Origin: a virus
IMG/VR virus record: IMGVR_UViG_3300007735_000802
Length of the DNA stretch: 64,000 nt
Strand: one strand, 5' to 3'
In this document: positions 1-17,552 of the stretch, one piece after another
Layout: every line of letters starts with the position of its first letter
Numbering within the stretch: the stretch's first letter is position 1
Position numbers and translations under genes: made by a program
The notes under the pieces: generated by a model
Database searches by the model: none
Seen by the model: only the letters and a program-made list of their open reading frames with translations
What the model was told of the DNA's origin: nothing

Positions 1-436
1 CATTCAGAATCGCATCGGCAGCATCCGACAACGAAGGCTTCATGCTGTTCTTCGTTTCCGCGAGGTACTGGTCGAAGAGATCTTCGATGCCGAGCTGACG
101 CGCGACTTCGCGAATCGACCGAAGCTCCGCATCGACATCGAACGGATTCTCGCTCCGGTACTTCGCAATCTCATCATGCACATCCTGCGCGATATCGACG
201 CAATTGTCGCTCGCGTCGTGCTGCATTCCGTAGGTATCACGGAGATTCCGCAGCAGCTTCTGCACATTGACGAGCACACGAACATCAGTCTCGCCCATGC
301 GGCCGTTCGCACCGATGTCGTTCAGCGTGTTCGTGAGATTGATGCCGATGATGTCGAGGATTCCCGCGACGACGAGCGGATTGTGCGTATTGGGAACACC
401 GTTGACCGAAAGGGGAAGATTGTGGTTGTTGCTCAT
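1..436 (-). CDS. hypothetical early protein (3' end runs off the window)
   Basis: ATG at 436 (MSNNHNLPLSVNGVPN...), open to the window edge, AGAGAG-like RBS upstream; not in the ORF track. Confidence 0.6.
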   Translation of the reverse strand, partial: MSNNHNLPLSVNGVPNTHNPLVVAGILDIIGINLTNTLNDIGANGRMGETDVRVLVNVQKLLRNLRDTYGMQHDASDNCVDIAQDVHDEIAKYRSENPFDVDAELRSIREVARQLGIEDLFDQYLAETKNSMKPSLSDAADAILN

Positions 437-468
437 TGTGTTGCTCTCTGAAAGGGGTGAAAGGTGAA

Positions 469-539
469 AGAGTCGAGCGGGAGTCGAACCCGCATTTCGT
501 CCCTTGTGGGGCGATCCTTCCATTTGGATGATCGACTCT
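469..539 (-). ncRNA. tRNA-like RNA with degenerate anticodon arm (pseudo-tRNA or tRNA mimic)
   Basis: Reverse complement gives acceptor stem GAGTCGA/TCGACTC, D-arm ATCC-AAATGGAA-GGAT and T-arm GCGGG-TTCGACT-CCCGC; the middle hairpin CGCCC-CACAAG-GGACG is not a canonical 5+7+5 arm. Confidence 0.6.
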
Positions 540-546
540 GCGAGGG

Positions 547-810
547 TCAGGCCTTGAGGCCAGCCTCCCGCAGGAACTCCGCGCGGAGCTTGTTCAGCGT
601 GTCGAGCGACGAAGTCGCATCGGCAGCGCGCTGATGCGCGATCTTGCGCTTGCGCTCCTCGACCGCGATCTTGCGGTCGATCTTCTTCATCTCCTTCGCG
701 ACCGCGTCACGGAGGAGCTGCTCGCGCAGGCTCGCGAGCGACTGAATCGGACGCGGACCCTTGCGGCTGGGGGTGCGGGTGGTGGAACCGTTAGCGTTGC
801 TGTTCTTCAT
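547..810 (-). CDS. basic coiled-coil early protein
   Basis: Start moved to ATG 810, 6 nt downstream of TATAAT (leaderless). Confidence 0.65.
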   Translation of the reverse strand: MKNSNANGSTTRTPSRKGPRPIQSLASLREQLLRDAVAKEMKKIDRKIAVEERKRKIAHQRAADATSSLDTLNKLRAEFLREAGLKA

Positions 811-816
811 GCGCTC

Positions 817-844
817 ATTATACCAAGGCCGCCATGCCATGCAA
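817..844 (-). promoter_or_regulatory. sigma70-type promoter, leaderless
   Basis: TTGCAT-16-TATAAT with extended TG; ATG 6 nt downstream. Confidence 0.65.
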
Positions 845-913
845 GCCCCTTGAAGCATAAATCTTCTCGGATTTCGTAACCCTCGAGGTGACAAGGACTT
901 ACGCGCAAAGAGG

Positions 914-1004
914 TTATTGGACCCGATTGTGGATAACTTGTGGACAGCGCACCCCGGTTGATAGTAAATTATTGGACCTAGAACTTATCCACAACTTATC
1001 CACA
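914..1004. promoter_or_regulatory. DnaA-box cluster with GTTGATAGTA and TTATTGGAC repeats between divergent promoters
   Basis: TGTGGATAA 928-936, degenerate TGTGGACAG 939-947, TTATCCACA 985-993 and 996-1004; GTTGATAGTA 957-966; TTATTGGAC 914-922 and 969-977. Confidence 0.75.
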
Positions 1005-1020
1005 TTCCGAAATGGTGGGC

Positions 1021-1049
1021 TTGACAGGGAGGGGAAAAGCTGATATTAT
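1021..1049 (+). promoter_or_regulatory. sigma70-type promoter, leaderless
   Basis: TTGACA-17-TATTAT with extended TG; ATG 1056 lies 6 nt downstream. Confidence 0.75.
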
Positions 1050-1055
1050 CAGGGA

Positions 1056-1268
1056 ATGCACAACTTCCCCAAGCATATGTACGAAATGACCGAAGCCGAG
1101 CTTATTCGCGAGCTCGGGATTCTCGAGCCGCGTGTTCGCGAGCTCTACGCGCTGCTCGACCGCGGTGAGCTGGAGTCGAAGGATCTCTTCGAGCTCAATC
1201 GCAGCGACATTCGCGCGACCATGATTCGTGCCGAGCTCGATGCGCGTTGCAATGCGGCTTGCGTCTGA
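1056..1268 (+). CDS. hypothetical early protein
   Basis: ORF directly after the promoter. Confidence 0.7.
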   Translation: MHNFPKHMYEMTEAELIRELGILEPRVRELYALLDRGELESKDLFELNRSDIRATMIRAELDARCNAACV

Positions 1269-1294
1269 TTCAATCCGAAAGAAAGAGGAAACAC

Positions 1295-1621
1295 ATGAGC
1301 GACGATGGCTACAACGGATGGAAGAACTACGAAACTTGGAATGTGAATCTCTGGATTCAGAACGACGAAGGCTTCTACAATGCAATGGTGGAAGAGCTGC
1401 GTTCGATTCTCGAATCTCACGAATGGGATTGGGAGAATGTCAGCCTTGCAGAAGTTCGCACTCTCGTTCGTGATGTCATCGGACTGAAGACTCCCGATGG
1501 CGTTCGCACTACGGATATCCTGATCGACTGGATGGAAATCTCCGATGCGCTCCTCGAGCTCGCGGAAGGCAACAACATTCCCGTGCGTGGCGAAGATTCG
1601 ACCGAAATCCCTGGCTACTAA
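1295..1621 (+). CDS. acidic conserved phage protein (YNGWxNYETWNVxLW motif)
   Basis: GAGGA RBS before ATG 1295; motif common in phage early proteins. Confidence 0.75.
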   Translation: MSDDGYNGWKNYETWNVNLWIQNDEGFYNAMVEELRSILESHEWDWENVSLAEVRTLVRDVIGLKTPDGVRTTDILIDWMEISDALLELAEGNNIPVRGEDSTEIPGY

Positions 1622-1634
1622 ATAGAGAAAGAAC

Positions 1635-1805
1635 ATGAGCTACCCACACGACGACGATTTCGATGGATACCGATACGGTCTGACCGAATCTCAGATTCGC
1701 GAAAAGCTTCGTTTCGCGATTCATGGCGACGAAGACGAAAACGACGATTTCTTCGATTCGTTCGATGATGTTGACGAATCCGAAGACGAAGATTCGGATT
1801 GGTGA
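1635..1805 (+). CDS. very acidic 56-aa protein
   Basis: MSYPHDDDFDGY...DEDENDDFFDSFDDVDESEDEDSDW; below the ORF-track cutoff; followed by a terminator. Confidence 0.65.
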   Translation: MSYPHDDDFDGYRYGLTESQIREKLRFAIHGDEDENDDFFDSFDDVDESEDEDSDW

Positions 1806-1831
1806 AATACCGATCCGTAGCTCAACGATTC

Positions 1832-1859
1832 AAACGGGATCCTTTCGGGATCCCGTTTT
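1832..1859 (+). terminator. intrinsic terminator
   Basis: AAACGGGATCC-TTTCG-GGATCCCGTTTT. Confidence 0.8.
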
Positions 1860-1860
1860 C

Positions 1861-1918
1861 GTTGATAGTATAATATGTTGATAGTATGGGCAGTTGATAG
1901 TATATACGGTTGATAGTA
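1861..1918 (+). repeat. iteron-like array, 4x GTTGATAGTA at exact 16-bp period
   Basis: Copies start at 1861, 1877, 1893 and 1909; an AT-rich tract follows. Confidence 0.9.
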
Positions 1919-2226
1919 ATTGTCATTTTCGCAATACGCTGTTTTATATTTTCAAGTAAAGTTTATTTGCGCGGTGTGGTACGCGGTGATTCGTTGCGAA
2001 TCATTGTGGATTATTGAGGAGCGGCTAAGCCTCACCCTCCCTACCACTATCCTCTAACCTTCTCTCCGGTATCCTCTACCATCGTATTGCAGTACCCTCT
2101 ACAGTCTTATACGAGAGTCTTTCCACACTTTCCCCCACATCTCCCCACTCTTTCCCACAACTTATTTGTTACCTTTACATAAAGAACAAAGATCCTTTCG
2201 GATCTTTGATATTTTGTCCTTTCTCA

Positions 2227-2655
2227 TCAGAAAAGAATGACGAGAAGCAGAACTGGAATGGCGATTAGAACAAATGCGAGAGAGCAGAGAATCAAAAGAG
2301 CGAGAATGAATACATCTGATGCTGAACTTTGACTTGGACTCTTGGTCGATTTCCATTGTGTGACATTCTTCTTTGTTCCGTTCAATGCATGAATGGTGTC
2401 TTCGTATGAGAAGAAGAGAGAATCGACGGGATCGGTGATTGATGTGGTATCGGGTTGAGGAGACTTTCGGGAAATCTTTCCTTCTCTTACCAGTCGATCT
2501 TCTTCAAGAGAGAGAAACATTTCGATGTCTGTGGGTACATATTCGGCATCGGAAGTGTTTGGTTTGGCATTTACCATCTCTGCGTACTGGCGAGATGCAA
2601 TGTCTGTCTGTACACGAAGAAAGTCTTCGAGGGATGATTCAATCTTGTTCGTCAT
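2227..2655 (-). CDS. hypothetical protein with C-terminal transmembrane segment
   Basis: C-terminal VFILALLILCSLAFVLIAIPVLLLVILF. Confidence 0.55.
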   Translation of the reverse strand: MTNKIESSLEDFLRVQTDIASRQYAEMVNAKPNTSDAEYVPTDIEMFLSLEEDRLVREGKISRKSPQPDTTSITDPVDSLFFSYEDTIHALNGTKKNVTQWKSTKSPSQSSASDVFILALLILCSLAFVLIAIPVLLLVILF

Positions 2656-2800
2656 CTTGGGTACTGGAGTCTTCCTATGCGAGCGAGCATATCGAATCGA
2701 AACAGGTCACACACTTCTTCTGATTGTGAGATTGCTTTCTGAGGAGGAGGAGGTGATTCATTTACCTTCTCCATCAGCGTATCCCAAAAGGCGTACTTGT

Positions 2801-2944
2801 CTATCGGTTGTTCCTTCGATTCTGCTCCTCGAGCTTGTCCTGAATCTTTCGGAGAGTGTTTGCGATGTCGTTGATTTGCCATACGATGGAACCGATGATA
2901 TAGGCGGTTGCGAGTGCGAACAGGACGAGAAAGAAGGTATCCAT
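2801..2944 (-). CDS. small single-pass membrane protein
   Basis: MDTFFLVLFALATAYIIGSIVWQINDIANTLRKIQDKLEEQNRRNNR; AAGGA RBS. Confidence 0.55.
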   Translation of the reverse strand: MDTFFLVLFALATAYIIGSIVWQINDIANTLRKIQDKLEEQNRRNNR

Positions 2945-2955
2945 GAGAGATTTCC

Positions 2956-3054
2956 TTAGTTGTCGAATAGGTCAATCCCGAAGATTGACATTAGAACGGA
3001 AGCGGTCAGAGCGAGCACGATGAAGATCACGATGAATGAAACGAGAAGACTCAT
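2956..3054 (-). CDS. small membrane peptide
   Basis: MSLLVSFIVIFIVLALTASVLMSIFGIDLFDN; ATGA overlap with the upstream gene. Confidence 0.55.
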   Translation of the reverse strand: MSLLVSFIVIFIVLALTASVLMSIFGIDLFDN

Positions 3055-3410
3055 GCGAGAATGACCCCGGAGAAGCGAGCGACATATGAGAATGCGTCTT
3101 TGGTGCGATTGCGGTAGATGCGAATGGAATCCGATTCCGAAGACATCAGCATTTCGGTGTTCGGGTCGATGTGCGTCTGAAGAATGAACCATGTGTCTTC
3201 ACCCTGCACCATTTCACGAAACAGAATGCAGACAGGAATCTGATCGGACTCAAGCTTGAATCCCTTGGGGTAGACGAGCGATTCGTAGTCGCGGTGAATG
3301 TAGCATGAGTACAGATCCGAGAACATCGAACGAGTCTTCTCGTCTTCGCGAAACAGCAGATGATCGGGAAGAAGAGAGCGAAGGTGCTGCATTGAAGTCG
3401 GTGTAATCAA
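3051..3410 (-). CDS. hypothetical early protein
   Basis: Coupled ORF in the minus-strand operon. Confidence 0.6.
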   Translation of the reverse strand: MITPTSMQHLRSLLPDHLLFREDEKTRSMFSDLYSCYIHRDYESLVYPKGFKLESDQIPVCILFREMVQGEDTWFILQTHIDPNTEMLMSSESDSIRIYRNRTKDAFSYVARFSGVILA

Positions 3411-3691
3411 GTGAGTTCTCCGTATTCGATTCCAGTTTCGGGATCGGTGTCTGCAATCAGAATCTCGTCTCGCTGAATGACGGCGATCTTGCGTCCGAGT
3501 TCAGTTTCGGGAGTCAGATGCGGGCTCGAGGAGTGATTCACCGGAACACCATTGCGAGTGAGAAGGTAGAATCCGTCCACGATTCCATCCTCGACTCCAT
3601 CTTCGAGGAGCGAAAGAAGACGATGATACCGATGCGATTCGATATCGACTGCGATAATGAGACGAGTGTGATTGTTTCCGCTGTCAGTCAT
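3407..3691 (-). CDS. hypothetical early protein
   Basis: Coupled ORF in the minus-strand operon. Confidence 0.6.
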   Translation of the reverse strand: MTDSGNNHTRLIIAVDIESHRYHRLLSLLEDGVEDGIVDGFYLLTRNGVPVNHSSSPHLTPETELGRKIAVIQRDEILIADTDPETGIEYGELT

Positions 3692-4523
3692 TGAGAGTCA
3701 CCATGTTGTCGTAGTTGCGATAAGCAGGACACGCGATGTGGTATCCGAAGTCGATGCAGACAGGATTTCCGTTCCATAGTCCGAGATTGCCACGATGAAG
3801 ATCGTTCATCATGTACGGATTGTCGTCTTCATTCCATGTCTCACCAAGGCGAAGACGAGGATTCTTCCATGCGTCTTCGCTTGTGTCCGTTTCGGACAGA
3901 TCGTCGTACTGCGTATTTCCAATGTCGAGTTCCATGATTCGGTACTTCAGCGACATGGGATCACGAACCGCGTCGATGGCATTGAACGAATCCATCCAGT
4001 TCGACTCTTCGTTCACATCGGCATCAATCGACTTCCAAAACTTCTTGACGGAAGACTTGGACATGGAGCGAAGACCGTAGAACCGAATGTAGTTCAGATA
4101 CATACCCTGAATCACCGGAGAACCAAGAATCTCTGCACAGAGACGACCGTGTTCGGTGCAGTCTGCATTGCAAGACTCGTACCCCCAACGATTGCGAGTA
4201 CGAGCCTTGTTCGTTCGTGGACGCACAATCCACAGAACCATCTTGCCAACAGGAGGAGCGAGTCCTTCGTCTGCTGCAATCTTTTGCCGCTGCCATGCGG
4301 CATACGCTTCAATCGAAGTGTTGAACATCTTGATGGCGTACTGGTTTGGATTGTTGACTTCTGCACCATTCGGAAAGAAGTCAGACTGGCATCCCGAATC
4401 ACGCGAAACAGGCATTCCCCGCATCTCGTACACCTTGACATCACCCATGATCGGGTGCGTCATTGTGCGAGTGGAAGTGAAATGCGGATACGATCCGTTC
4501 TGATTGTGTGGCACAGTTTCCAT
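3684..4523 (-). CDS. protein-kinase-like fold protein
   Basis: YAIKMF (beta3 Lys), NDLHRGN catalytic loop, CIDFG; start placed at ATG 4523, downstream of the promoter. Confidence 0.65.
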   Translation of the reverse strand: METVPHNQNGSYPHFTSTRTMTHPIMGDVKVYEMRGMPVSRDSGCQSDFFPNGAEVNNPNQYAIKMFNTSIEAYAAWQRQKIAADEGLAPPVGKMVLWIVRPRTNKARTRNRWGYESCNADCTEHGRLCAEILGSPVIQGMYLNYIRFYGLRSMSKSSVKKFWKSIDADVNEESNWMDSFNAIDAVRDPMSLKYRIMELDIGNTQYDDLSETDTSEDAWKNPRLRLGETWNEDDNPYMMNDLHRGNLGLWNGNPVCIDFGYHIACPAYRNYDNMVTLND

Positions 4524-4563
4524 ATCTCGAGCTCTCTTGAAGGGTTGCGAGTTGTGAGATGGC

Positions 4564-4592
4564 ATTATACCATAAATCCGGTTCGTTGTCAA
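4564..4592 (-). promoter_or_regulatory. sigma70-type early promoter (leadered)
   Basis: TTGACA-17-TATAAT with extended TG. Confidence 0.8.
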
Positions 4593-4605
4593 GTCGAGCG
4601 AGACA

Positions 4606-4809
4606 TCAGTACGGTCGATTGCTTGGAGAGGTCACGAACATTCGGAAGATGTTGGGGTAGTTGCCATCATCGTCCATGAATGCTTCATTGCTGCACTCGT
4701 TGACAATGAAATCCTCGAGCTCGAGCAGTTCCGCATCGGTCAGTTCGTTCAGCATATCGTTGATCGCCGTCCGAATGTTTTCGGTCTTGCTGTTCATTTC
4801 TTCGCTCAT
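4606..4809 (-). CDS. acidic hypothetical protein
   Basis: Likely start MSEEMNSK after AGGAG RBS. Confidence 0.6.
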   Translation of the reverse strand: MSEEMNSKTENIRTAINDMLNELTDAELLELEDFIVNECSNEAFMDDDGNYPNIFRMFVTSPSNRPY

Positions 4810-5330
4810 CAGACATTCTCCTTCCGGTTTGCGTCCTCGAAGTAAATCTCGTTCGGTTCCGAGTAGTGAACTTCGGTACGAATCACATCCTGCGCATAGA
4901 ACTTGCCATTCTCCCACAACCAACGCCAACGCTCACCATCTTCGCCCTTCACATCAACGAAGCATCCGTGAATGACCACGGGAGCAATGGCAGCGAAGAA
5001 CTTCTCTTCGTCACCAATCTTCGATTCACCACCACGAATGTCGAGGTAGAAGTGGGTAATGCCATTCTCCTCATTGGTGATCTCAAGATCGTATCCCCAA
5101 CACTCGAAAACGCGAATGATGTCACGATCCGCAACCGCCTTGCGGACATCTTCGGTATTCACCCACGAATACCACCAAGACGACTGCTTGTCGTTTGCAT
5201 AACATCCACCGTTGCCATTCTCTTCAAGATTCTTGTCGCTCATCAGATTGGCAACAAGATCGAAGAAGCGGGGAAGATCCGAAGTGCGAATGGAGAACGA
5301 AGTCTGCGGAGTGCTGATGTAGTAACCCAT
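4809..5330 (-). CDS. conserved phage protein
   Basis: Likely start MGYY after AAGGA; motif KIGDEEKFF...GEDGERWRW. Confidence 0.7.
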   Translation of the reverse strand: MGYYISTPQTSFSIRTSDLPRFFDLVANLMSDKNLEENGNGGCYANDKQSSWWYSWVNTEDVRKAVADRDIIRVFECWGYDLEITNEENGITHFYLDIRGGESKIGDEEKFFAAIAPVVIHGCFVDVKGEDGERWRWLWENGKFYAQDVIRTEVHYSEPNEIYFEDANRKENV

Positions 5331-5346
5331 TGTGTGTTTCCTTCTT

Positions 5347-5592
5347 TCAGAGAGACTTGTCGGTGATGCGAACGGCTTCGTGCATGGAATCCTCAATCGG
5401 TTCCACCATGTCTGTAATACCTTCTTCGATCTTGTTGAGATGACTGCAAATCTCATTCATGTTGATGTCTCCATCCATGATCCTGCTATGCAGATTGTCG
5501 ATCATGTCGATAACCCGATTCGCCTTTGCATCGACGCGAATGAGATTCTTTGCGGGAACCGAAACGGACTTGCTGATCTTCTTGGTCTTCAT
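5347..5592 (-). CDS. hypothetical helical protein (resembles 45908-46129)
   Basis: AAGGAAG RBS; shared IxDGxI...LxxIxExI pattern. Confidence 0.65.
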   Translation of the reverse strand: MKTKKISKSVSVPAKNLIRVDAKANRVIDMIDNLHSRIMDGDINMNEICSHLNKIEEGITDMVEPIEDSMHEAVRITDKSL

Positions 5593-5604
5593 GTCTTCCT
5601 TCTT

Positions 5605-5907
5605 TCAGAGATTCGGATTGATCGTGCTTGCGACGAAGATGAACTTGGCAACCTGATCGGTCGTGAGTCGCGCGAGGACATTCTCACCGTAGTAGTCGAA
5701 ACCTTCGACATGAACCCAAGCGTGAGTATCCGCGTTCCACGCAGCGCACTCTGCGGTCGTCTTGCCGTCAGAGTAGTTGCCTTCTCCCCAACGAACGGAA
5801 ACGGTCACGCGATTGGTGAAAGTCATCGTGAATCCACGGTTGACACGATGCGGTTCAAGATTGAAACGCGCGAGAGAATCGGAAATGGTGCTGTCCTCGG
5901 TCATCAT
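5605..5907 (-). CDS. hypothetical early protein, leaderless
   Basis: ATG 6 nt after TATAAT. Confidence 0.7.
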   Translation of the reverse strand: MMTEDSTISDSLARFNLEPHRVNRGFTMTFTNRVTVSVRWGEGNYSDGKTTAECAAWNADTHAWVHVEGFDYYGENVLARLTTDQVAKFIFVASTINPNL

Positions 5908-5913
5908 GCGTGT

Positions 5914-5942
5914 ATTATACCATAAATCGGGGTGCTTGTCAA
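5914..5942 (-). promoter_or_regulatory. sigma70-type promoter, leaderless
   Basis: TTGACA-17-TATAAT with extended TG. Confidence 0.85.
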
Positions 5943-6418
5943 GTCCAGTCCCTACTTGCGCGTTCATCCGCAAGGGTAGTCTCGCAAGCATCACAGATGG
6001 AATGCGGAAATGGTTGATCGCGGTCGAGGCGGAATGCCTCGCCGCAATGCCCACAGACTCGTTCGGACATTGCCTCTACCATCGAAACCATACCGTCGAT
6101 GAAGATGCAAGTCTCACGAATCTTTACCATTTCGCTCTCGTCAAGGTTCTCGGCGTAGTGGAAGTCGAGATAGAAGCGAAGAGAACCGTACTTCTCCTTC
6201 ACCTGTACCGCGACTGGTTGGAACTGACGATTCGGATGCATTCGATTGATGAAGTCGCAATGAGACTGAATCGAACCGCAGAGTGCTTCGATGAGATTGA
6301 ACCACCCATCTCCACACTCAAACCCGAATGCCATGCAAGTATCCTTCACATCTCCCCCGTAGTCAGAGAAGAGTTTGGGATACTTGGCGACGAGTTGCTG
6401 CTCTAGCTCGAGTTTCAT
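5939..6418 (-). CDS. conserved phage protein with C-terminal zinc finger
   Basis: FECGDGW, QVKEKYGSLRFY, CGHCG...CDAC. Confidence 0.75.
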   Translation of the reverse strand: MKLELEQQLVAKYPKLFSDYGGDVKDTCMAFGFECGDGWFNLIEALCGSIQSHCDFINRMHPNRQFQPVAVQVKEKYGSLRFYLDFHYAENLDESEMVKIRETCIFIDGMVSMVEAMSERVCGHCGEAFRLDRDQPFPHSICDACETTLADERASRDWT

Positions 6419-6681
6419 TACTGATCCACCTCGACACGAACCTTGAAGTAGTTCTCCCTACCCGAATCTTCGACCATGATCGAAGTGATCTTGCCGAATC
6501 CGTAATCCTCTCCGACGAAGAGAGCATTTCCGTTTAGGACTCCACCTTCGGCATCGAACATATTCTCTGCCCCGCGATTGTAGCGAGACACACCTTCGAT
6601 GGTGTAGATTCCGTGTCCATTGTCGGTCACGAATCGTTCGAGTCCGTATCGTGCCATGTACTTGCGCTTTGTCGTGTTCAT
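6418..6681 (-). CDS. hypothetical early protein
   Basis: GAGGA RBS before ATG 6681. Confidence 0.6.
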   Translation of the reverse strand: MNTTKRKYMARYGLERFVTDNGHGIYTIEGVSRYNRGAENMFDAEGGVLNGNALFVGEDYGFGKITSIMVEDSGRENYFKVRVEVDQ

Positions 6682-6689
6682 TGTGTTCC

Positions 6690-6869
6690 TCAAATGGTGA
6701 TTTCGGTCAGATCGTCAACGATGGTGATGTTGTCTCGCGCTTCGTCCCATTCTTCGGTTTCCTCGAAATGCTTGGCGACACGATCCACATTGATCGGTTT
6801 GTCGCTCTTGATTCGATAAACGAACGGAGAACAGTTGCGAAACTCAACGATTGCGATTGCTTCAAACAT
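6690..6869 (-). CDS. 59-aa hypothetical protein
   Basis: MFEAIAIVEFRNCSPFVYRIKSDKP...; fills the gap between coupled genes. Confidence 0.6.
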   Translation of the reverse strand: MFEAIAIVEFRNCSPFVYRIKSDKPINVDRVAKHFEETEEWDEARDNITIVDDLTEITI

Positions 6870-7082
6870 TTATCTTGCCCTCGCGTATTCGCGGTTCAGT
6901 CGTCGTGCGTCTTCATTGTTACGCGCAATGAAGAGTTCACAATCTGCCTTGTGTGAGTAGATGATTCGTGCCACGGACTTGAAGGTGTGCTTGTCGGCAC
7001 AACCGACACAGTATTCCGTATCGGGAAAGAACTCAAGTCGAGCAGCAGGAATCTCGTTGCCACAGTCGAAACACTTACACAT
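6870..7082 (-). CDS. TraR/DksA-type C4 zinc-finger protein
   Basis: CFDCGNEIPAARLEFFPDTEYCVGCA. Confidence 0.8.
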   Translation of the reverse strand: MCKCFDCGNEIPAARLEFFPDTEYCVGCADKHTFKSVARIIYSHKADCELFIARNNEDARRLNREYARAR

Positions 7083-7320
7083 TGCGGGTCTTGCTCCTCA
7101 TTTCGTCAAGAGTGTCGCGGTAGTCCGCGCAGACATCACGAAAGCGGTTGATGAATGCGTGAAGTGCCACAGACATCTCTTCCTGATTCGACATCTGAAG
7201 AATGGAAACAGTTGCTTCCATCTCCTTGATGAGATCATCGTCACTCATCATGTCGTAGTAGTCGTACACGGTGTCGCGGGTGTCGTCATTCGGAATCATT
7301 GGGGTACAACTCACTTTCAA
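7075..7320 (-). CDS. acidic hypothetical protein
   Basis: Coupled ORF; start uncertain. Confidence 0.55.
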   Translation of the reverse strand: MKVSCTPMIPNDDTRDTVYDYYDMMSDDDLIKEMEATVSILQMSNQEEMSVALHAFINRFRDVCADYRDTLDEMRSKTRNV

Positions 7321-7522
7321 TCTGATGCATCAGAGTTTCGATGTGGTGAATCTGTTCCTCGAGCTGAGCGATTCGGTCTTCGGAGCTCGAGTAGTATCCA
7401 CCATTTGCAATCGCAAAGAGAGAATGAAGATTTCCACGAAGGAAACCATATGCGTATGCGTATTGAGCCTGGGAACTACGCGGAATGATGCGCGGAGGAG
7501 TGACGGAAGTCTCGGTTTGCAT
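7286..7522 (-). CDS. hypothetical early protein, leaderless
   Basis: ATG 7522 lies 6 nt after TATAAT. Confidence 0.65.
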   Translation of the reverse strand: MQTETSVTPPRIIPRSSQAQYAYAYGFLRGNLHSLFAIANGGYYSSSEDRIAQLEEQIHHIETLMHQIESELYPNDSE

Positions 7523-7528
7523 GGGCAT

Positions 7529-7557
7529 ATTATACCACAAACGACTGCGGTTGTCAA
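7529..7557 (-). promoter_or_regulatory. sigma70-type promoter, leaderless
   Basis: TTGACA-17-TATAAT with extended TG. Confidence 0.85.
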
Positions 7558-7559
7558 GA

Positions 7560-8012
7560 TCAATGCGAAGTGCGGTGTTCTGCATTGCAGCAGTCTGCTT
7601 CGATGCGCTTGTCGCAAGTGCGACAAACCGTAGCAGACTCTCCCTTGTTTGCTGATGCGATATCGCACGGGAGTTCAGCGTAGAAGAACTCATTGCCATT
7701 CTCAATCGCGTCACCGCAATCGTCGCACCAGTATTGTGTGGTCTTCACATCTTCCCAACCAACGAAAGAGAGTCCATCCCATCCCATCGACAGCGCAATA
7801 TCCTGCGGAGTCTGTTCGGGATGATCGACATACCCTTCGCGGTGATCAACAGCGACGAACTCGCAGTAGAGCATACGAGCATCATCACGCTCTGCGATCA
7901 GGTTCTCAATCAGATTGGCAGACTCAACGAGATTCTGAATCTGTTCGGGTTCAAAGTCTGCGTTGTTCGCTGCTGCAAAATCACGAAGGAAGTTTGCGAG
8001 ATTGTGGTTCAT
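7560..8012 (-). CDS. ERDxAR-family protein with C-terminal zinc finger
   Basis: AERDDARMLYC...MGWDGL; CDDC...CRTC. Confidence 0.7.
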   Translation of the reverse strand: MNHNLANFLRDFAAANNADFEPEQIQNLVESANLIENLIAERDDARMLYCEFVAVDHREGYVDHPEQTPQDIALSMGWDGLSFVGWEDVKTTQYWCDDCGDAIENGNEFFYAELPCDIASANKGESATVCRTCDKRIEADCCNAEHRTSH

Positions 8013-8200
8013 GCGTTCTCCTTGTTGTCCATTGCGCGAAGACGGCGAACGACCTCGGCAAGAGCGAGATAGTCGTATCGGTCAATCTCATATCCACCGA
8101 ATCCCTCTTCGTTGGAGATGTTCTCAATCCAGTTTGCGAGTTCGTCGTTGCACATATTGTGCGCGTCGATGCGAGTCAAATCGTATTCGTTCTTGGTCAT
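8009..8200 (-). CDS. hypothetical protein
   Basis: Coupled ORF. Confidence 0.6.
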   Translation of the reverse strand: MTKNEYDLTRIDAHNMCNDELANWIENISNEEGFGGYEIDRYDYLALAEVVRRLRAMDNKENA

Positions 8201-8439
8201 GCGTAACTCACTTTCGAGAAAGATTGCTTGATGGTTCGTCGTTCGATGAATGCTTCGCCATCAGCTCGAGCATTCCGTTCCTTCGTGATCTTCTTTCCGA
8301 TTCCGAATGGTTTGCAGATGGTGCGATTGTGCTTCACTACTGCCGCACCTTCGCGCTCTGCTTCCATGTCGAAACGATCAATCACTCGCTTGGGCATTGG
8401 TTCCTCCGATACCACAAGTCTTTGCTGCACAGAGTTCAC
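8197..8439 (-). CDS. hypothetical basic protein
   Basis: Coupled ORF. Confidence 0.5.
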   Translation of the reverse strand: MNSVQQRLVVSEEPMPKRVIDRFDMEAEREGAAVVKHNRTICKPFGIGKKITKERNARADGEAFIERRTIKQSFSKVSYA

Positions 8440-8698
8440 GGAGATTCAGAATCTCAATCGACTGCGCGACAATGACTCGGTGAGTCTCTGCGAGCTTTTG
8501 CGAAAGTTTGATGTTCTGAACACAAACATTGTCGTAGTTCTTCTTGACTTCACGGAGAGTTTCATCCGATTCACGGAGCTCATCACTCACCGAGTCGAGT
8601 GCTGCGAGTGCTGATGCAACATCATCAAATCCCTGCATATGGAGAAGATCCATGTCGTACTTGCGCTGATTGTTCTTTTCGTTCTTAGGCATTGTCAT
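8378..8698 (-). CDS. coiled-coil hypothetical protein
   Basis: Start MTMPKNEK after AGGAG. Confidence 0.55.
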   Translation of the reverse strand: MTMPKNEKNNQRKYDMDLLHMQGFDDVASALAALDSVSDELRESDETLREVKKNYDNVCVQNIKLSQKLAETHRVIVAQSIEILNLRELCAAKTCGIGGTNAQASD

Positions 8699-8942
8699 TC
8701 TCCTTCGGAAAGCAGTCCCATCCCATTTCGTTGGCAATCTCTTCAACAGACATTCGACCATTTCGCGCGAGGTGATACTCATTGCACAGAGTGCGCCTCG
8801 CCTCGTCGCGCTCTTCACGCAGTTGCTTGAGCATCTTTACTGCGTGATACTCGTAGGAACTCTGTTCGGGATTCGTGTATCCCATGACCTTGACCGCCAT
8901 TTCAAAGTAGCGAATGAGTCCGTCGATTGAGTAGTCGCTCAT
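8685..8942 (-). CDS. ERDxAR-family protein
   Basis: EERDEARRTLC...MGWDCF. Confidence 0.7.
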   Translation of the reverse strand: MSDYSIDGLIRYFEMAVKVMGYTNPEQSSYEYHAVKMLKQLREERDEARRTLCNEYHLARNGRMSVEEIANEMGWDCFPKENDNA

Positions 8943-8943
8943 A

Positions 8944-9417
8944 TCAGACCGCCTTTCGGGGGTAAGTGTTGTAGTAGTACGGAATCACGCGATAGAACTG
9001 CTGCGTCATGCCGCTGAAGTGACAAGTCCATTCATCCCATGGATTGTCACAATACATACTGCTATTGAGTGGATTCGCAATCACATCCTGCGGAGTCCAT
9101 CCCTGCGCCTTCGTCTTCTTCCAATCTGCGCGCGCAGTTTCAAGATCGGGGAAATGAGAACCCTTCGACCTGTACCAAATGCCCTCATTACCCAAGACCC
9201 AATCGTAGAAACGAATCTCATTGGGAACCCACGGATTCGGAGTGTAGACACGCGCGAACTGCATTCCGTACTCGTTCACGGGAGAAACGAGCGCGTAGGT
9301 ACGCGGAATGTCAAAGTCGTGGAAAGTGTGCATTGCGTGAGGATAATCTCCCGCAACAAACGGAGTATGGACAAACGCAGGACGGGTAGAACCGATCTTG
9401 ACCTTCATCGTCTTCAT
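8944..9417 (-). CDS. hypothetical early protein, leaderless
   Basis: ATG 9417 lies 6 nt after TATAAT. Confidence 0.7.
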   Translation of the reverse strand: MKTMKVKIGSTRPAFVHTPFVAGDYPHAMHTFHDFDIPRTYALVSPVNEYGMQFARVYTPNPWVPNEIRFYDWVLGNEGIWYRSKGSHFPDLETARADWKKTKAQGWTPQDVIANPLNSSMYCDNPWDEWTCHFSGMTQQFYRVIPYYYNTYPRKAV

Positions 9418-9423
9418 GGGTGT

Positions 9424-9452
9424 ATTATACCACAAATGGGTGCGAGTGTCAA
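9424..9452 (-). promoter_or_regulatory. sigma70-type promoter, leaderless
   Basis: TTGACA-17-TATAAT with extended TG. Confidence 0.85.
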
Positions 9453-9456
9453 GCGA

Positions 9457-10173
9457 TTAGTGCTTGTGGTAAGTCACGGTTGCGACATTGCGATCCCAAC
9501 ACGCGCGACAATCGCGGCATTCGTTCGACTGAGAAGGTGCGAGACACGCGAACGAACCACGCGAACGCGCATTCTCCATTGCGGAGTCATTCGATGCGAC
9601 TTCCGACGAATGCTCGAAGTCATTCGGTGCAGACGAGTCGAGCATTGCCGCAGAAACGCGAACGGTGAGATTCGCGGGAAACTCACCGAACATCTCGCGG
9701 TACTTGCGAACAATCGCATACTCGCGCGTAGGAAGCCAGTGCTTCACATTTGGAGTCATTTCGCAGACTTGCACGATGTTGATGAGATGAGAGAGCGACT
9801 GCAAATCGCCCGAATCGTGCCAACGGAAATACGAAACCTTCTTGCACTTCTTTCCGATGACATACGCCATCGCTGCGACCCAACGCGAATCGAAGAGCGC
9901 GTTGTACCTACGCTCCATTGCCTTCTTTGTATTGGGGTAGTTGTAACTACCCTTGCAAGCGTAGCACTTCTCGCAAGTCGAACCCTTCACCTTTCGCAGC
10001 TTGGAACCGACATTGCAACGCTTCGCGGAGATGCTGGTACTCCAGCCTGGCATCTTGGAAGGCTTCGAAAGACCACCGACGATATCTTCGGCTTCGGAAT
10101 GATCGAAACTCGTTTCGGGATTGTGAATCGGAATAGCGCGAGTAGGAGCCTGGACGAGACTGTAAGTAACCAT
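9457..10173 (-). CDS. Gp88-like Cys-rich (probable Fe-S) phage protein
   Basis: GGLSKPSKMPG, C...CEKCYA, YFRWHDSGD, HWLPTRE, CRDCRACW. Confidence 0.8.
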   Translation of the reverse strand: MVTYSLVQAPTRAIPIHNPETSFDHSEAEDIVGGLSKPSKMPGWSTSISAKRCNVGSKLRKVKGSTCEKCYACKGSYNYPNTKKAMERRYNALFDSRWVAAMAYVIGKKCKKVSYFRWHDSGDLQSLSHLINIVQVCEMTPNVKHWLPTREYAIVRKYREMFGEFPANLTVRVSAAMLDSSAPNDFEHSSEVASNDSAMENARSRGSFACLAPSQSNECRDCRACWDRNVATVTYHKH

Positions 10174-10179
10174 TCCGGT

Positions 10180-10245
10180 AAGCTACCATAAACTTTCCCG
10201 CGTGTCAAGCCCTAACTTCCCGGAATGTGGATAACTTGTGGGTGA
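10180..10245 (-). promoter_or_regulatory. leaderless promoter with upstream DnaA box
   Basis: TTGACA-17-TAGCTT, ATG 6 nt downstream; perfect DnaA box 10226-10234 and degenerate box 10237-10245. Confidence 0.7.
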
Positions 10246-10298
10246 ATCTTATGCAAGGTAGGACTGCATATTCATTCATGCATATTCACACACACCGC

Positions 10299-10335
10299 GT
10301 TGATAGTAGTTGATAGTACACAAATGTTGATAGTA
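10299..10335 (+). repeat. 3x GTTGATAGTA cluster at a GC/AT boundary
   Basis: Copies at 10299, 10309 and 10326; TGCATATTCA x2 just upstream. Confidence 0.85.
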
Positions 10336-10347
10336 CACCCCCTATCT

Positions 10348-10875
10348 TTATTTTTCTCCAATAGAATCATGTATATAATAATTTGGGAATCTAGCCTTTA
10401 GCTCTCTCATAATAGCATCAAGAGAACTATTTGAAAAATAGTTTCGATGATTTGTGTTCATGCTTATCACTCTTCGATCATGATCTATTCTTCCGTATAC
10501 ATGAGGATGTGATTTATATGCTCCATTATCCGTGGTATAATATGCGTCAGGAAATAAATCAGCGTGTGTTTGTTCCATGTTTTGTATTGGTCTTATCGCT
10601 ACCAAATTTTCATTATTTTTTATTTCTTTTTTGATTGATGGACCAGCAGCCCACAGATGTGGTAATTTACCTTGATCAGATACTCCCCACACATCTCTTT
10701 TTATTTTGGCAAGTTCTGCCATTTTATTATCGTCGATTGGACCTAAATAACTCTCATCATCGTGACCAACATTAAGATATGTAGAGTTTACTTGTGGAAT
10801 TCTACTTTCTCTTCTTCTTCGTTGCTCTTCGCGAAATCGTTCTACTGATTCAAGTAGTTGTTTAAATTTGATCAT
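10348..10875 (-). CDS. putative internal head protein
   Basis: MIKFKQLLESVE leader; TATAGATA late-type promoter 5 nt upstream. Confidence 0.65.
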   Translation of the reverse strand: MIKFKQLLESVERFREEQRRRRESRIPQVNSTYLNVGHDDESYLGPIDDNKMAELAKIKRDVWGVSDQGKLPHLWAAGPSIKKEIKNNENLVAIRPIQNMEQTHADLFPDAYYTTDNGAYKSHPHVYGRIDHDRRVISMNTNHRNYFSNSSLDAIMRELKARFPNYYIHDSIGEK

Positions 10876-10892
10876 AATAGTATCTATAAATG

Positions 10893-10916
10893 AAAACCCC
10901 CCTTGCGGGGGGTTTT
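10893..10916. terminator. intrinsic terminator (symmetric)
   Basis: AAAACCCCCC-TTGC-GGGGGGTTTT. Confidence 0.8.
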
Positions 10917-10918
10917 GT

Positions 10919-12343
10919 TTAGGTAGCGACATACGGTGCTAGTGCAGGAGAATCTGGTGGTTCTTCTCCGGTTTCATTGTAATATAACCCACCACCAACA
11001 CCAAGTCCAAATCCAATTCCTTGATTTTCTATATTTGGCGCGATGTGTGCTGGTGCATTTGGATCACGATAGTGATCGAATGCTCTTCTGGAGACTAATC
11101 CGTTACCTCTCCAATCAAATGATCTAGAATCTCCAAGTTTTCTATAAACAAATTGACCAGTTGCTTCATCATATGCCCAGAAATGCCAGAATCCATTCGT
11201 GTCTTGATAATAAATTCCATCTTCTCGAACTTGTAACCAAGTATCTTGAGTTTGTTTCAATAAATCGGAAGTACCAACTAACGGTTTTGGAAGATCTGGT
11301 CTTGGTCTTGGTATGCTTAATTTATTAATTTTCATCCATCTATACAATAACTCTTTTGCTTGATCCTCTGTTAAATCCTCCCATACCAGTCTTCTTCCAA
11401 AAATAGATCCAATTCCACCCGGACCTCTTCCGGGTGGCCTGACTGGAGTATTACCACCACCATGTGGTGGTGCAGCTTCTAATATCGTTACTTCTTTCAA
11501 TTGTTCAAATAATCTATGTTTATAGTAATTTTTGATATTTTCATTTATGTTTTGCATATAGCTACTTTCGAATAATCTGTTTGGATCTGGAGGTCTAAGT
11601 CTTGTTGGATCTAAGCTAGGAGGAGTAAATACGGGGGGCATGTTTGGATTTTCAACTTGTCCAGGCCTATTTCTCACATGTAATGGACTTCTTTCCCATT
11701 GACCACTGTTTGGATTCCATTGATACCAATCATGTGGTTGTCCTCTTTCAAATGCTGGATTTGGTCTGTATTGCCATTCATTTGGGTTATATCCTTCTTC
11801 GCTTGGGTCATTTGGATTCCACCATCCGGGAGGTGGACCTTGAATTGGCGGTCCACCTCCCGGTGGGAAATAACCGGGATGTGTGTACCAAAGAGGTGGT
11901 GGATCATTGGGATTCGCATACCATGGATCAAGAGTAATTGGTCCGGCCGGACCTTCTGGTGCGGTATCTGTGCCACCAAAAACATCGACTTCATCTGGTA
12001 TTACCCAATATGGAAGTTGCCCTGGTGTTATTAAAATTGGGGGATATGGAGCTTTAGGATCTGGTGAAATATGATCAGGATGGTCCGCAGGAAGTCTATA
12101 TCTTCTTAACAAATCTCTAAGTTGTCTTCTCACTTCATCCTTCTGCTTATCTAAACGAGGAGGATTCATCCATCTATCATTCCCATATATGCTAGGATCG
12201 AAAGGGGGTTTTGGAGGAGCAGTACCGGAACTTGATGGTGGTGCATATCCAGGAACATTTGGATTTTGCGTTGGTGGAATTACAGGATCTGATTGCACAG
12301 TATCTTCTGTTATAGATTTGATGAATTTATTAAAACTTTTCAT
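10919..12343 (-). CDS. Pro-rich putative internal head (poly)protein
   Basis: MKSFNKFIKSITE leader; internal RLFES/RLFEQ/ILEA sites; TATACATA upstream. Confidence 0.65.
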   Translation of the reverse strand: MKSFNKFIKSITEDTVQSDPVIPPTQNPNVPGYAPPSSSGTAPPKPPFDPSIYGNDRWMNPPRLDKQKDEVRRQLRDLLRRYRLPADHPDHISPDPKAPYPPILITPGQLPYWVIPDEVDVFGGTDTAPEGPAGPITLDPWYANPNDPPPLWYTHPGYFPPGGGPPIQGPPPGWWNPNDPSEEGYNPNEWQYRPNPAFERGQPHDWYQWNPNSGQWERSPLHVRNRPGQVENPNMPPVFTPPSLDPTRLRPPDPNRLFESSYMQNINENIKNYYKHRLFEQLKEVTILEAAPPHGGGNTPVRPPGRGPGGIGSIFGRRLVWEDLTEDQAKELLYRWMKINKLSIPRPRPDLPKPLVGTSDLLKQTQDTWLQVREDGIYYQDTNGFWHFWAYDEATGQFVYRKLGDSRSFDWRGNGLVSRRAFDHYRDPNAPAHIAPNIENQGIGFGLGVGGGLYYNETGEEPPDSPALAPYVAT

Positions 12344-14512: not shown

Positions 14513-14650
14513 ATATTATACCAAAATATAAGTTCCTGTCAATACCTTTTGTGTCATTTTTTGAACTTATCGGACGGGTTGATAGTATTATTATCGGACT
14601 CAAAATATGGGATGTTTCGTATTGACTCAAAGAATAAATTATGGTATAAT
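14513..14650. promoter_or_regulatory. divergent sigma70 promoters flanking TTATCGGAC-GTTGATAGTA-TTATCGGAC
   Basis: Minus: TTGACA 14542-14537, TATAAT 14520-14515. Plus: TTGACT 14622, TATAAT 14645. Motif 14578-14587. Confidence 0.8.
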
Positions 14651-17474: not shown

Positions 17475-17552
17475 TGCCGCAGGGCTTTCGCTACCTTAAG
17501 GGACTAGGGGGGGATCAACGGGTATGATCCCCCCAATTTTATAAATACAGAT

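Follow-up and report, generated by a model that had tools for sequence, protein, structure and literature searches.

A conserved, strand-skewed non-coding module between converging early operons of a distant T4-like phage, tentatively read as a replication origin

T4-type phages are the textbook example of genomes whose origins fire from R-loops and by recombination, without a host initiator. What is established on origin specification comes essentially from T4 itself, and, to our knowledge, no role of the T4 oriE repeats in origin function has been shown in 25 years. In plasmids, the incA and incC control loci hold extra iteron copies elsewhere in the genome. The T4 origins coincide with switches of the transcribed strand; an early promoter is required at oriE, where direct repeats recur at even spacing, while oriF and oriG have a factor-dependent promoter and an unwinding element (PMC3016281). 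Sites at which Rho is loaded onto RNA (rut sites) are described as C-rich, G-poor, at least 70–80 nt long and unstructured, with regularly spaced cytosines (PMC6407284).

The stretch of viral DNA analysed here (64,000 nucleotides; hereafter the window) comes from a distant T4-like phage, with a split family-B DNA polymerase 46–48% identical to cyanophage gp43. It also encodes tRNAs and ribonucleotide reductase, and at 17540 it has the late promoter sequence canonical for T4 (TATAAATA). The G+C content is about 50% in the first 10.3 kb and about 35% in the rest of the window, and this GC-rich early block consists of densely packed small genes of unassigned function with textbook sigma70 promoters, which match the consensus and have an extended -10. 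Such an early block, about 11 kb long and with a G+C content of about 50% against about 35% for the phage, was observed both in the window (1–10335) and in contig L001 (about 2000–11010), and recalls the first-step-transfer region of T5 in size and content; the end of the T5 region also has repeats and DnaA boxes. The right border of the GC-rich block is a two- to three-copy array of the 10-mer GTTGATAGTA in the window, L056, L001 and L075 (three exact copies in the window, L001 and L075; two exact and one degenerate in L056). GC skew in the window tracks gene direction and is uninformative on origins.

Within this block, a gene-free module of about 350 bp lies between two converging early operons: the rightward small-gene operon 1056–1805, ended by the terminator at the left border, and a leftward early operon (2227–2655 and beyond), ended by the hairpin at the right border. 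Its parts and its immediate surroundings are as follows.

928–1004: upstream DnaA-box region, with exact boxes at 928–936 (- strand), 985–993 (+ strand) and 996–1004 (+ strand) around a single GTTGATAGTA at 957–966
1635–1805, + strand: open reading frame converging on the module from the left
1832–1859, + strand: intrinsic terminator at the left border, 11-bp perfect stem and T run
1861–1918, + strand: repeat array, four exact GTTGATAGTA starting at 1861, 1877, 1893 and 1909, with an exact 16-bp period
1897–1926, - strand: leftward promoter-like site, -35 ATGACA (1926–1921) and -10 TATACT (1904–1899) or TACTAT (1902–1897)
1919–1968: AT-rich stretch, 76% A+T, holding the promoter and the conserved GTTTATTTG
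1920–1950, + strand: rightward sigma70-like promoter, -35 TTGTCA (1920–1925) and -10 TATATT (1945–1950), 19-nt spacer
1970–2022, + strand: G-arm, 39% G and 15% C, including the hairpin below and TGTGGATTA (2005–2013)
1987–1993 and 1997–2003: hairpin TGATTCG/CGAATCA
2023–2035: conserved box GGCTAAGCC-TCAC, of which the first 9 bp (2023–2031) are palindromic
2036–2159, + strand: C-arm, 41% C and 7% G
2119–2159, + strand: four tandem units ending in CCAC(A), namely CTTTCCACA, CTTTCCCCCACA, TCTCCCCAC and TCTTTCCCACA, spaced 12, 10 and 10 bp
2160–2186: AT-rich right flank
2187–2208: bidirectional terminator hairpin at the right border, 9-bp stem with T-rich tails on both strands
2227–2655, - strand: open reading frame converging on the module from the right

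Much of what the original prediction had described was recovered in this anatomy: a gap where + and - early operons converge, which the two open reading frames and two terminators delimit; four exact repeats at 16-bp spacing; the AT-rich run at 1919–1968; the hairpin at 1987–2003; and a C/T-rich tract, with 43% C and 8% G over 2028–2160.

Pattern scans and an nhmmer profile identified nine further copies of the module, in contigs L001, L080, L079, L102, L141, L128, L050, L159 and L051. Despite a mean column identity of only about 41%, the order of parts is constant: two to five GTTGATAGTA, mostly 16 bp apart in the nine homologues; a promoter pair; AT-rich DNA with GTTTATT(T)G; the G-arm; the box; the C-arm; the CCAC(A) units; and 30–45 bp of AT-rich DNA followed by the terminator of the converging gene. 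The right-hand hairpin in L080 and L051 terminates the minus strand only, and in L159 a terminator sits between promoter and core. Synteny around the module is loose, with a DUF7249 gene and a small basic protein gene recurrent upstream. No similar DNA was found among 50,697 phage records, and a genome-contig scan and two viral scans with the core patterns revealed no further homologues.

The original prediction had allowed that the region might prove to encode a conserved protein or a structured RNA. No conserved open reading frame was detected, since stops fall in different frames across the homologues, and the unit lengths of 10, 11 and 22–23 nt break any reading frame; an early tblastn match was rejected as coding evidence, as it reflects nucleotide conservation of the box. 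Rfam gave no match at gathering or permissive thresholds (best E-values 0.03, with scores below half the gathering score), no tRNA or tmRNA was found in the module region, and the RNAalifold consensus structure of the homologues contained 0 pairs. Single-sequence folding gave z of about -2.7 on both strands, largely owing to the terminator, and a long hairpin between G-arm and C-arm was no better than in arm-shuffled controls (z -1.0 to +0.6). Given neither an open reading frame nor a conserved RNA structure, the conservation rests on short motifs, spacing and strand composition. The module is a genuine and conserved feature that no catalogued family explains.

With up to one mismatch, GTTGATAGTA occurs 14 times in the window against 4.6 expected, a number reached in 0 of 100 shuffles. 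Exact copies number 11 at six sites (957; 1861–1918, four copies; 10299, 10309 and 10326, which mark the border between GC-rich and AT-rich DNA; 14578; 17026; 29036), all on the + strand and all intergenic. Copy number differs between relatives at equivalent loci, the homologue of the 17026 site in L002 having four or more. A strong promoter lies within 140 nt in 9 of 34 arrays on each side, against a background of 4.75%, and exact DnaA boxes, TTATCGGAC and TTGTCAAT/ATTGACAA half-sites often occur together with the 10-mer. Because the motif is dispersed over six intergenic places, strand-polar and near strong promoters, it is not an origin-specific initiator site, contrary to its earlier reading as an origin iteron; it behaves, on its distribution, as the predicted site of a general early-region DNA-binding factor. 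A strand-polar 10-mer and its binding factor would be a regulatory code for this phage group, whichever reading of the module holds.

Several known classes of site were considered for GTTGATAGTA and rejected: a late promoter, the canonical TATAAATA being present (e.g. at 17540); a MotA-type box, there being no TAnnnT at a fixed distance; an extended -10, the base 3' of the motif not being conserved as T; and an IHF site, the TTR being out of register. A literature search for the 10-mer returned only unrelated primers. Two further motifs were observed in company with it. In paralogous junctions a perfect palindrome, TGTCAATATTGACA, stands directly 3' of GTTGATAGTA (L001 2966–2981; L051 about 1906–1925 and L113 about 907–925, both in reverse-complement coordinates). 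It may represent an operator-like second motif or two -35 hexamers placed back to back; elsewhere the half-sites TTGTCAAT and ATTGACA are 14–15 nt apart. TTAT(C/T)GGAC, a third motif, borders GTTGATAGTA sites that occur singly between divergent promoters (window 14567–14599; L001 4080–4125 and 10880–10930; L123 5880–5895).

Of all 50-bp windows in the 10.3-kb block (mean 49.7% A+T, sd 6.2), the three with the highest A+T and the lowest stability are 1918–1967, 1857–1906 and 2165–2214, flanking the core on both sides. The -35 of the rightward promoter directly adjoins the last GTTGATAGTA repeat, and an alternative -10, TTATAT, has an 18-nt spacer. In the consensus of the copies the promoter pair reads (A/T)TTGTCAA, about 16 nt, TTTACA(A/T)T, corresponding to a -35 and a -10 about 18 nt apart, and the geometry TTGTCA, about 18 nt, TAC(A/T)(A/T)T is kept in 9 of 11 homologous or paralogous copies whose spacers are unrelated. 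The promoter is weak by position weight matrix (7–12 bits) and is missing in two or three homologues; the conserved spacing is the best evidence for a predicted rightward transcription start near 1957. The -10 of the leftward promoter-like site falls inside the third (penultimate) repeat and its -35 is the reverse of TTGTCAA. That site scores 9–15 bits in the window, L080, L141, L159 and L001, and a small basic protein gene lies to its left in L001, L079 and L141. A leftward promoter at the right end, from which a G-rich RNA might be made, is not conserved, being present among the ten copies only in L102, L080 and L128. Minus-strand G-rich RNA, which the original prediction had proposed to form the R-loop, would start behind the terminator in the window and could come only from read-through of 2208–2187.

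Strand composition flips at the box, which is unique in the window and reads GGCT(A/T)AGCC-TCAC across the copies, so placed that composition has dyad symmetry around the palindromic GGCTAAGCC. The G-arm measures 36–119 nt in the homologues, with 6–23% C; its G content is 38–42% in six copies and 17–28% in four, the window being counted among the ten, and the hairpin at 1987–2003 is only partly kept in two relatives. The C-arm measures 65–165 nt across the ten copies, with 38–49% C and 1–12% G, and the depletion of G extends through its variable parts and spacers. On neither strand of the 64 kb does the C/G ratio over 78 nt rise above the 8.4 of the window's C-arm, the 99.9th percentile being 5.0. 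In the window the C-arm ends in four units of 10–12 bp (YYYYCCCAC), and in the homologues in two to six units; their invariant part is CCAC/GUGG, and the core as a whole is single-copy in the window. Of 24 intervals between successive CCAC, 12 measured 10 bp and 5 measured 12 bp (shuffle mean 0.29, maximum 3 in 1000), and by this spacing the units are helically phased. The minus strand had been suggested as a place to look for G-quadruplexes, and none of canonical form (G3+N1-7) was predicted there in the window or the nine homologues (0 of 10 copies; G4Hunter maxima 1.2–2.0).

Two resemblances of the core were also noted. The start of the C-arm in the window (2032–2046, UCACCCUCCCUA) and in L080 (321–335, UCACCUUCCCUA) resembles the 3' end of 16S rRNA, whose anti-Shine-Dalgarno region is UCACCUCCUUA; the likeness is short, lies in C-rich sequence and may be due to chance. 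At the left border of the GC-rich block of L001 (1480–1600) there is a miniature of the core, with G10, GGGG and GGTGGGG, then the palindrome GCTAGC, then the C-rich stretch CCCCTGACACCCCTAACATCCTCC.

The near-matches to the DnaA box that the original prediction had listed are in place, but they are not above chance: one-mismatch boxes number 20 in the window against 22.5 expected, and two of those listed, CTTTCCACA and TTTCCCACA, differ from the consensus at two positions. TGTGGATTA is the only box with at most one mismatch to TTATCCACA inside the module (1861–2208), so that no DnaA-box cluster lies within it, and the degenerate CCAC units are two or more mismatches away. Exact boxes are distributed differently. 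Four occur in the window (928, 985, 996 and 10226), against roughly 0.5 expected by our own arithmetic, all in regulatory gaps of the early block. The cluster in the window lies 0.9 kb left of the array, with three small genes between. Exact boxes were found within 210 bp upstream of the array in five of the eight homologues with enough flank (three in L141, three in L128, one in L051, one in L079 and five in L102), and in L102, L128 and L141 a cluster stands directly upstream of it, that of L102 having five exact and three one-mismatch boxes within 120 bp. As a separate observation, the four exact host-type boxes of the window (928–1004 and 10226–10234) adjoin early promoters, and the arrangement GTTGATAGTA .. 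TTATCCACA, 17–18 nt, TTGACA, 17 nt, TATAAT recurs in L159 (7974 and 9755) and L051 (605).

Searches of the neighbouring proteins against Pfam and PHROGs revealed no DNA-binding domain, and no Rep-like gene in the flanks or homologue of RepEA or RepEB was found. The 87-aa neighbour (window 550–810, - strand) has, in its predicted structure, a disordered basic N-terminus and one long helix without a DNA-binding fold, and the ESM Atlas gave no lead for it. It belongs to a family of 87–94-aa proteins with a basic disordered N-terminus (RKGPRPIQ) and one long helix (mean pLDDT 84), to which neither Pfam nor PHROGs assigns a family; further members are encoded at L001 3673–3954 (- strand) and 2143–2409 (+ strand), L079 3082–3357, L141 878–1153, L159 9124–9402 and L051 3527–3796. 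Because its gene is divergent from the arrays in L001, L079 and L141, this protein is a candidate for the factor that binds them. A tRNA-like gene with an aberrant anticodon loop was detected by ARAGORN (window 468–539, - strand), the DNA of which is conserved in L001, L051, L079, L114 and L159.

We propose that 1861–2208 is a dedicated non-coding nucleoprotein site, most likely, although we hold this only tentatively and at less than an even chance, a transcription-coupled replication origin of the iteron-plus-DnaA-box type; the origin kind that we have in mind, with the same reserve, would combine an array of initiator sites, DnaA boxes, a promoter and easily melted DNA. From the arrangement of its parts we infer protein binding, transcription, R-loop formation and initiation in the following way. 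A phage or host protein would occupy the tandem GTTGATAGTA sites adjoining the -35 of the rightward promoter, and host DnaA would bind the nearby exact boxes and possibly the CCAC(A) units, which are helically phased and resemble DnaA boxes. The bound proteins, together with transcription from the promoter, would open the AT-rich flanks. The first 50–120 nt of the transcript would be G-rich and C-poor, and thus prone to stay hybridised to the template, after which a T4-type replisome would be loaded as at T4 oriE and oriF. The proposed primer is therefore this rightward transcript rather than a minus-strand RNA.

The proposal is drawn from the evenly spaced exact repeats, far above chance; the constant, ordered architecture in nine other contigs; the presence in the module of the three most AT-rich windows of the early block; the promoter geometry conserved beside the array; the phasing of the repeat units; a composition with dyad symmetry around a box that occurs once in the window; the lack of any open reading frame or conserved RNA structure; the exact DnaA boxes close upstream of the array in L141, L128, L102, L051 and L079; and the precedents of the T4 origins (PMC3016281). 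Against it we count that GTTGATAGTA is not private to the locus and varies in copy number between relatives at one locus, that its enrichment near strong promoters on both sides fits a general regulator, that no initiator gene is recognisable (neither RepEA nor RepEB has a homologue and the 87-aa neighbour lacks a DNA-binding fold), and that the AT-rich run is largely the promoter itself, leaving no separate downstream unwinding element. That G is depleted along the whole C-arm, in the spacers as well, is a sign of selection acting on one strand, namely on RNA, and also counts against an origin, as does the fact that T4-type phages do not need a sequence-specific one. Of the hybrid origin originally predicted, what stands is a non-coding locus, conserved in ten contigs, with even repeats, melting-prone DNA, a promoter and convergent operons; what does not is origin specificity of GTTGATAGTA, a conserved promoter for the G-rich RNA and a canonical G-quadruplex. 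The origin interpretation is a reasonable hypothesis, and its earlier details need correcting.

The single-strand signature of the C-arm is what an alternative account takes as its starting point, namely that the module encodes an untranslated transcript ending in an exceptionally strong rut site, which serves as a termination buffer. RNA made from the promoter, or by read-through from the + operon, would carry the C-arm in its 3' part, and Rho would stop RNA polymerase at the AT-rich flank and hairpin before antisense transcription enters the early operon that converges on the module. For leftward read-through, the complementary strand of the G-arm would act likewise, more weakly, and a protein-bound repeat array may add a roadblock. 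As sequence, the C-arm fits the published description of a rut site at least as well as it fits any feature of an origin (PMC6407284): over at least 78 nt its C/G exceeds 1, and reaches 6.1–27.7 in 10 of 10 copies (8.4 in the window), with five to seven cytosines spaced 11–13 nt apart and a hairpin within 150 nt downstream. Its variable parts are G-depleted too, no RNA structure is conserved, the minus strand of the G-arm has a C/G of 2.6–6.8 in 7 of 10 homologues, and the module sits exactly between converging operons, with a right-hand hairpin that in L080 and L051 ends transcription of the minus strand only. However, such a buffer leaves unexplained the palindromic box, the conserved TTTCCACAC...CCCCAC units, the promoter into the element and the DnaA-box clusters; other convergent junctions (window around 33 kb; L001 at 2940) have no such core; good intrinsic terminators are already present on both operons; and the skew far exceeds what rut sites normally show, a C/G of at least 3 being reached by only 37 of about 4,500 validated E. 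coli rut predictions (PMC6407284). We regard the buffer as possible, though rather unlikely. None of the readings of the module, those below included, excludes another; a transcript-primed origin with a Rho-terminated primer would join the origin and the buffer.

If the rightward RNA were instead the product, it would be a non-coding RNA of about 250 nt, acting in trans and mostly unstructured, running from about 1957 to the terminator at 2208, whose C-rich motifs (CCUC, UCCC, CCCCAC) would capture G-rich targets, either as a sponge or by antisense pairing, candidates being Shine-Dalgarno regions, GGA-rich host sRNA and Rho itself. The positionally conserved promoter flanked by regulator sites, the bounding terminators, the single copy in the window, a strand asymmetry kept in 10 of 10 homologues and motif arrays that change quickly in number while keeping their composition, as in sponge RNAs, are all consistent with this. 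Such an RNA is nevertheless an unlikely explanation, with no Rfam match, no consensus pairs and folding no better than in arm-shuffled controls, a promoter both weak and sometimes missing, and, in L159, a terminator between promoter and core. A variant in which the minus strand is read, giving a GGA-rich sponge like CsrB or RsmZ, draws on the minus-strand units AUCAGGGAAUG and AUGAGGAAUG of L050, L001 and L080 and on 8 GGA in the complement of the window's C-arm (about 140 nt), but that strand has no conserved leftward promoter, and a CsrA sponge was rejected because the invariant core is GUGG, not GGA. The dispersal of GTTGATAGTA leads to yet another account, a regulatory or titration hub without a replication role, at which dense sites for an early-region DNA-binding factor and host DnaA would act as a switch for early promoters, as an insulator of neighbouring operons or as a sink for DnaA that stops host initiation. 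The 10-mer's place in divergent promoter regions and at operon ends, in the early block and beyond and always on one strand, would suit such a hub, as would its frequent pairing with exact DnaA boxes and the half-sites, its proximity to strong promoters, the eight DnaA boxes in 120 bp of L102 and the small basic protein gene divergent beside arrays in three relatives. The strand-level G depletion of the C-arm and the single-copy core would remain unexplained, the neighbouring proteins have no DNA-binding fold and the CCAC units are too degenerate to be DnaA boxes of one mismatch, and we consider a hub quite unlikely. If the module should prove to be a transcript that loads Rho, or a sponge RNA, few known elements of that kind would match its extremity of composition, and it would represent a novel early-region device of phages.

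Returning to the origin that we favour, one near counterpart is T4 oriE: both belong to T4-type phages, have an evenly spaced cluster of direct repeats near a switch of the transcribed strand, and are associated with an early sigma70 rather than a middle promoter. The oriE repeats, however, are GTTGAAGGTAAT with a 24-nt period (L283 3927–4058) and lie inside gene 5, coding for the C-terminal beta-helix of gp5, whereas those of the module are non-coding, have a 16-bp period and are dispersed over six loci. The T4 unit GTTGAAGGTA and GTTGATAGTA are identical at 8 of 10 bases, which is probably chance because register and strand were free. With oriF and oriG the module shares activator-type sites upstream of a promoter, beside easily melted DNA, and a nascent RNA that would be hybrid-prone, the G-arm being G-rich and C-poor; it lacks the MotA geometry, no TAnnnT being seen by eye 11–13 bp after GTTGATAGTA, its AT-rich DNA coincides with the promoter instead of forming an element downstream of it, and a C-rich tract follows.

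Outside the T4 origins, the C-arm resembles rut sites in being C-rich, G-poor and unstructured over 65–165 nt, with a C every 10–13 nt and a hairpin downstream, and differs in its far more extreme skew and in features dispensable for rut sites, namely the sequence-conserved motifs and the palindromic box. The many dense, similar short motifs, the quick turnover of unit number and the GGA-rich minus strand recall CsrB and RsmZ, whereas conserved GGA hairpins, a promoter for the minus strand and an Rfam match are lacking and the core is GUGG.

Compared with the iteron origins of plasmids and of phage P1 (oriR), the module has no adjacent Rep gene, its repeat is only 10 bp with a period of 16 bp (1.5 helical turns) against about 22 bp, and it sits in a lytic T4-like virus with its own replisome; the repeats are not origin-specific, occurring at six loci in 30 kb. 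Notwithstanding these differences, regularly spaced repeats in one orientation are present in the window (four) and in the nine homologues (two to five), the extra GTTGATAGTA copies elsewhere recall those of the incA and incC loci, and L102, L128 and L141 show DnaA boxes, same-orientation repeats and AT-rich DNA in that order. On adjacent AT-rich DNA and DnaA boxes the observations point both ways: the array is flanked by the most AT-rich DNA of the block, which coincides with a promoter, and exact boxes are within 210 bp in five of the eight homologues with enough flank but 0.9 kb away in the window. It is conceivable, although we think it improbable, that this T4-like lineage starts replication in the manner of a plasmid, from a dyad-symmetric origin with host DnaA, a phage iteron-binding factor and a primer promoter, DnaA then using the exact boxes and a phased array of degenerate ones; if true, this would overturn the view that T4-type initiation does without DnaA or sequence-specific initiators. 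With its repeat arrays and exact host DnaA boxes, the module is a concrete, clonable candidate through which the question of origins can be put to an uncultured lineage.
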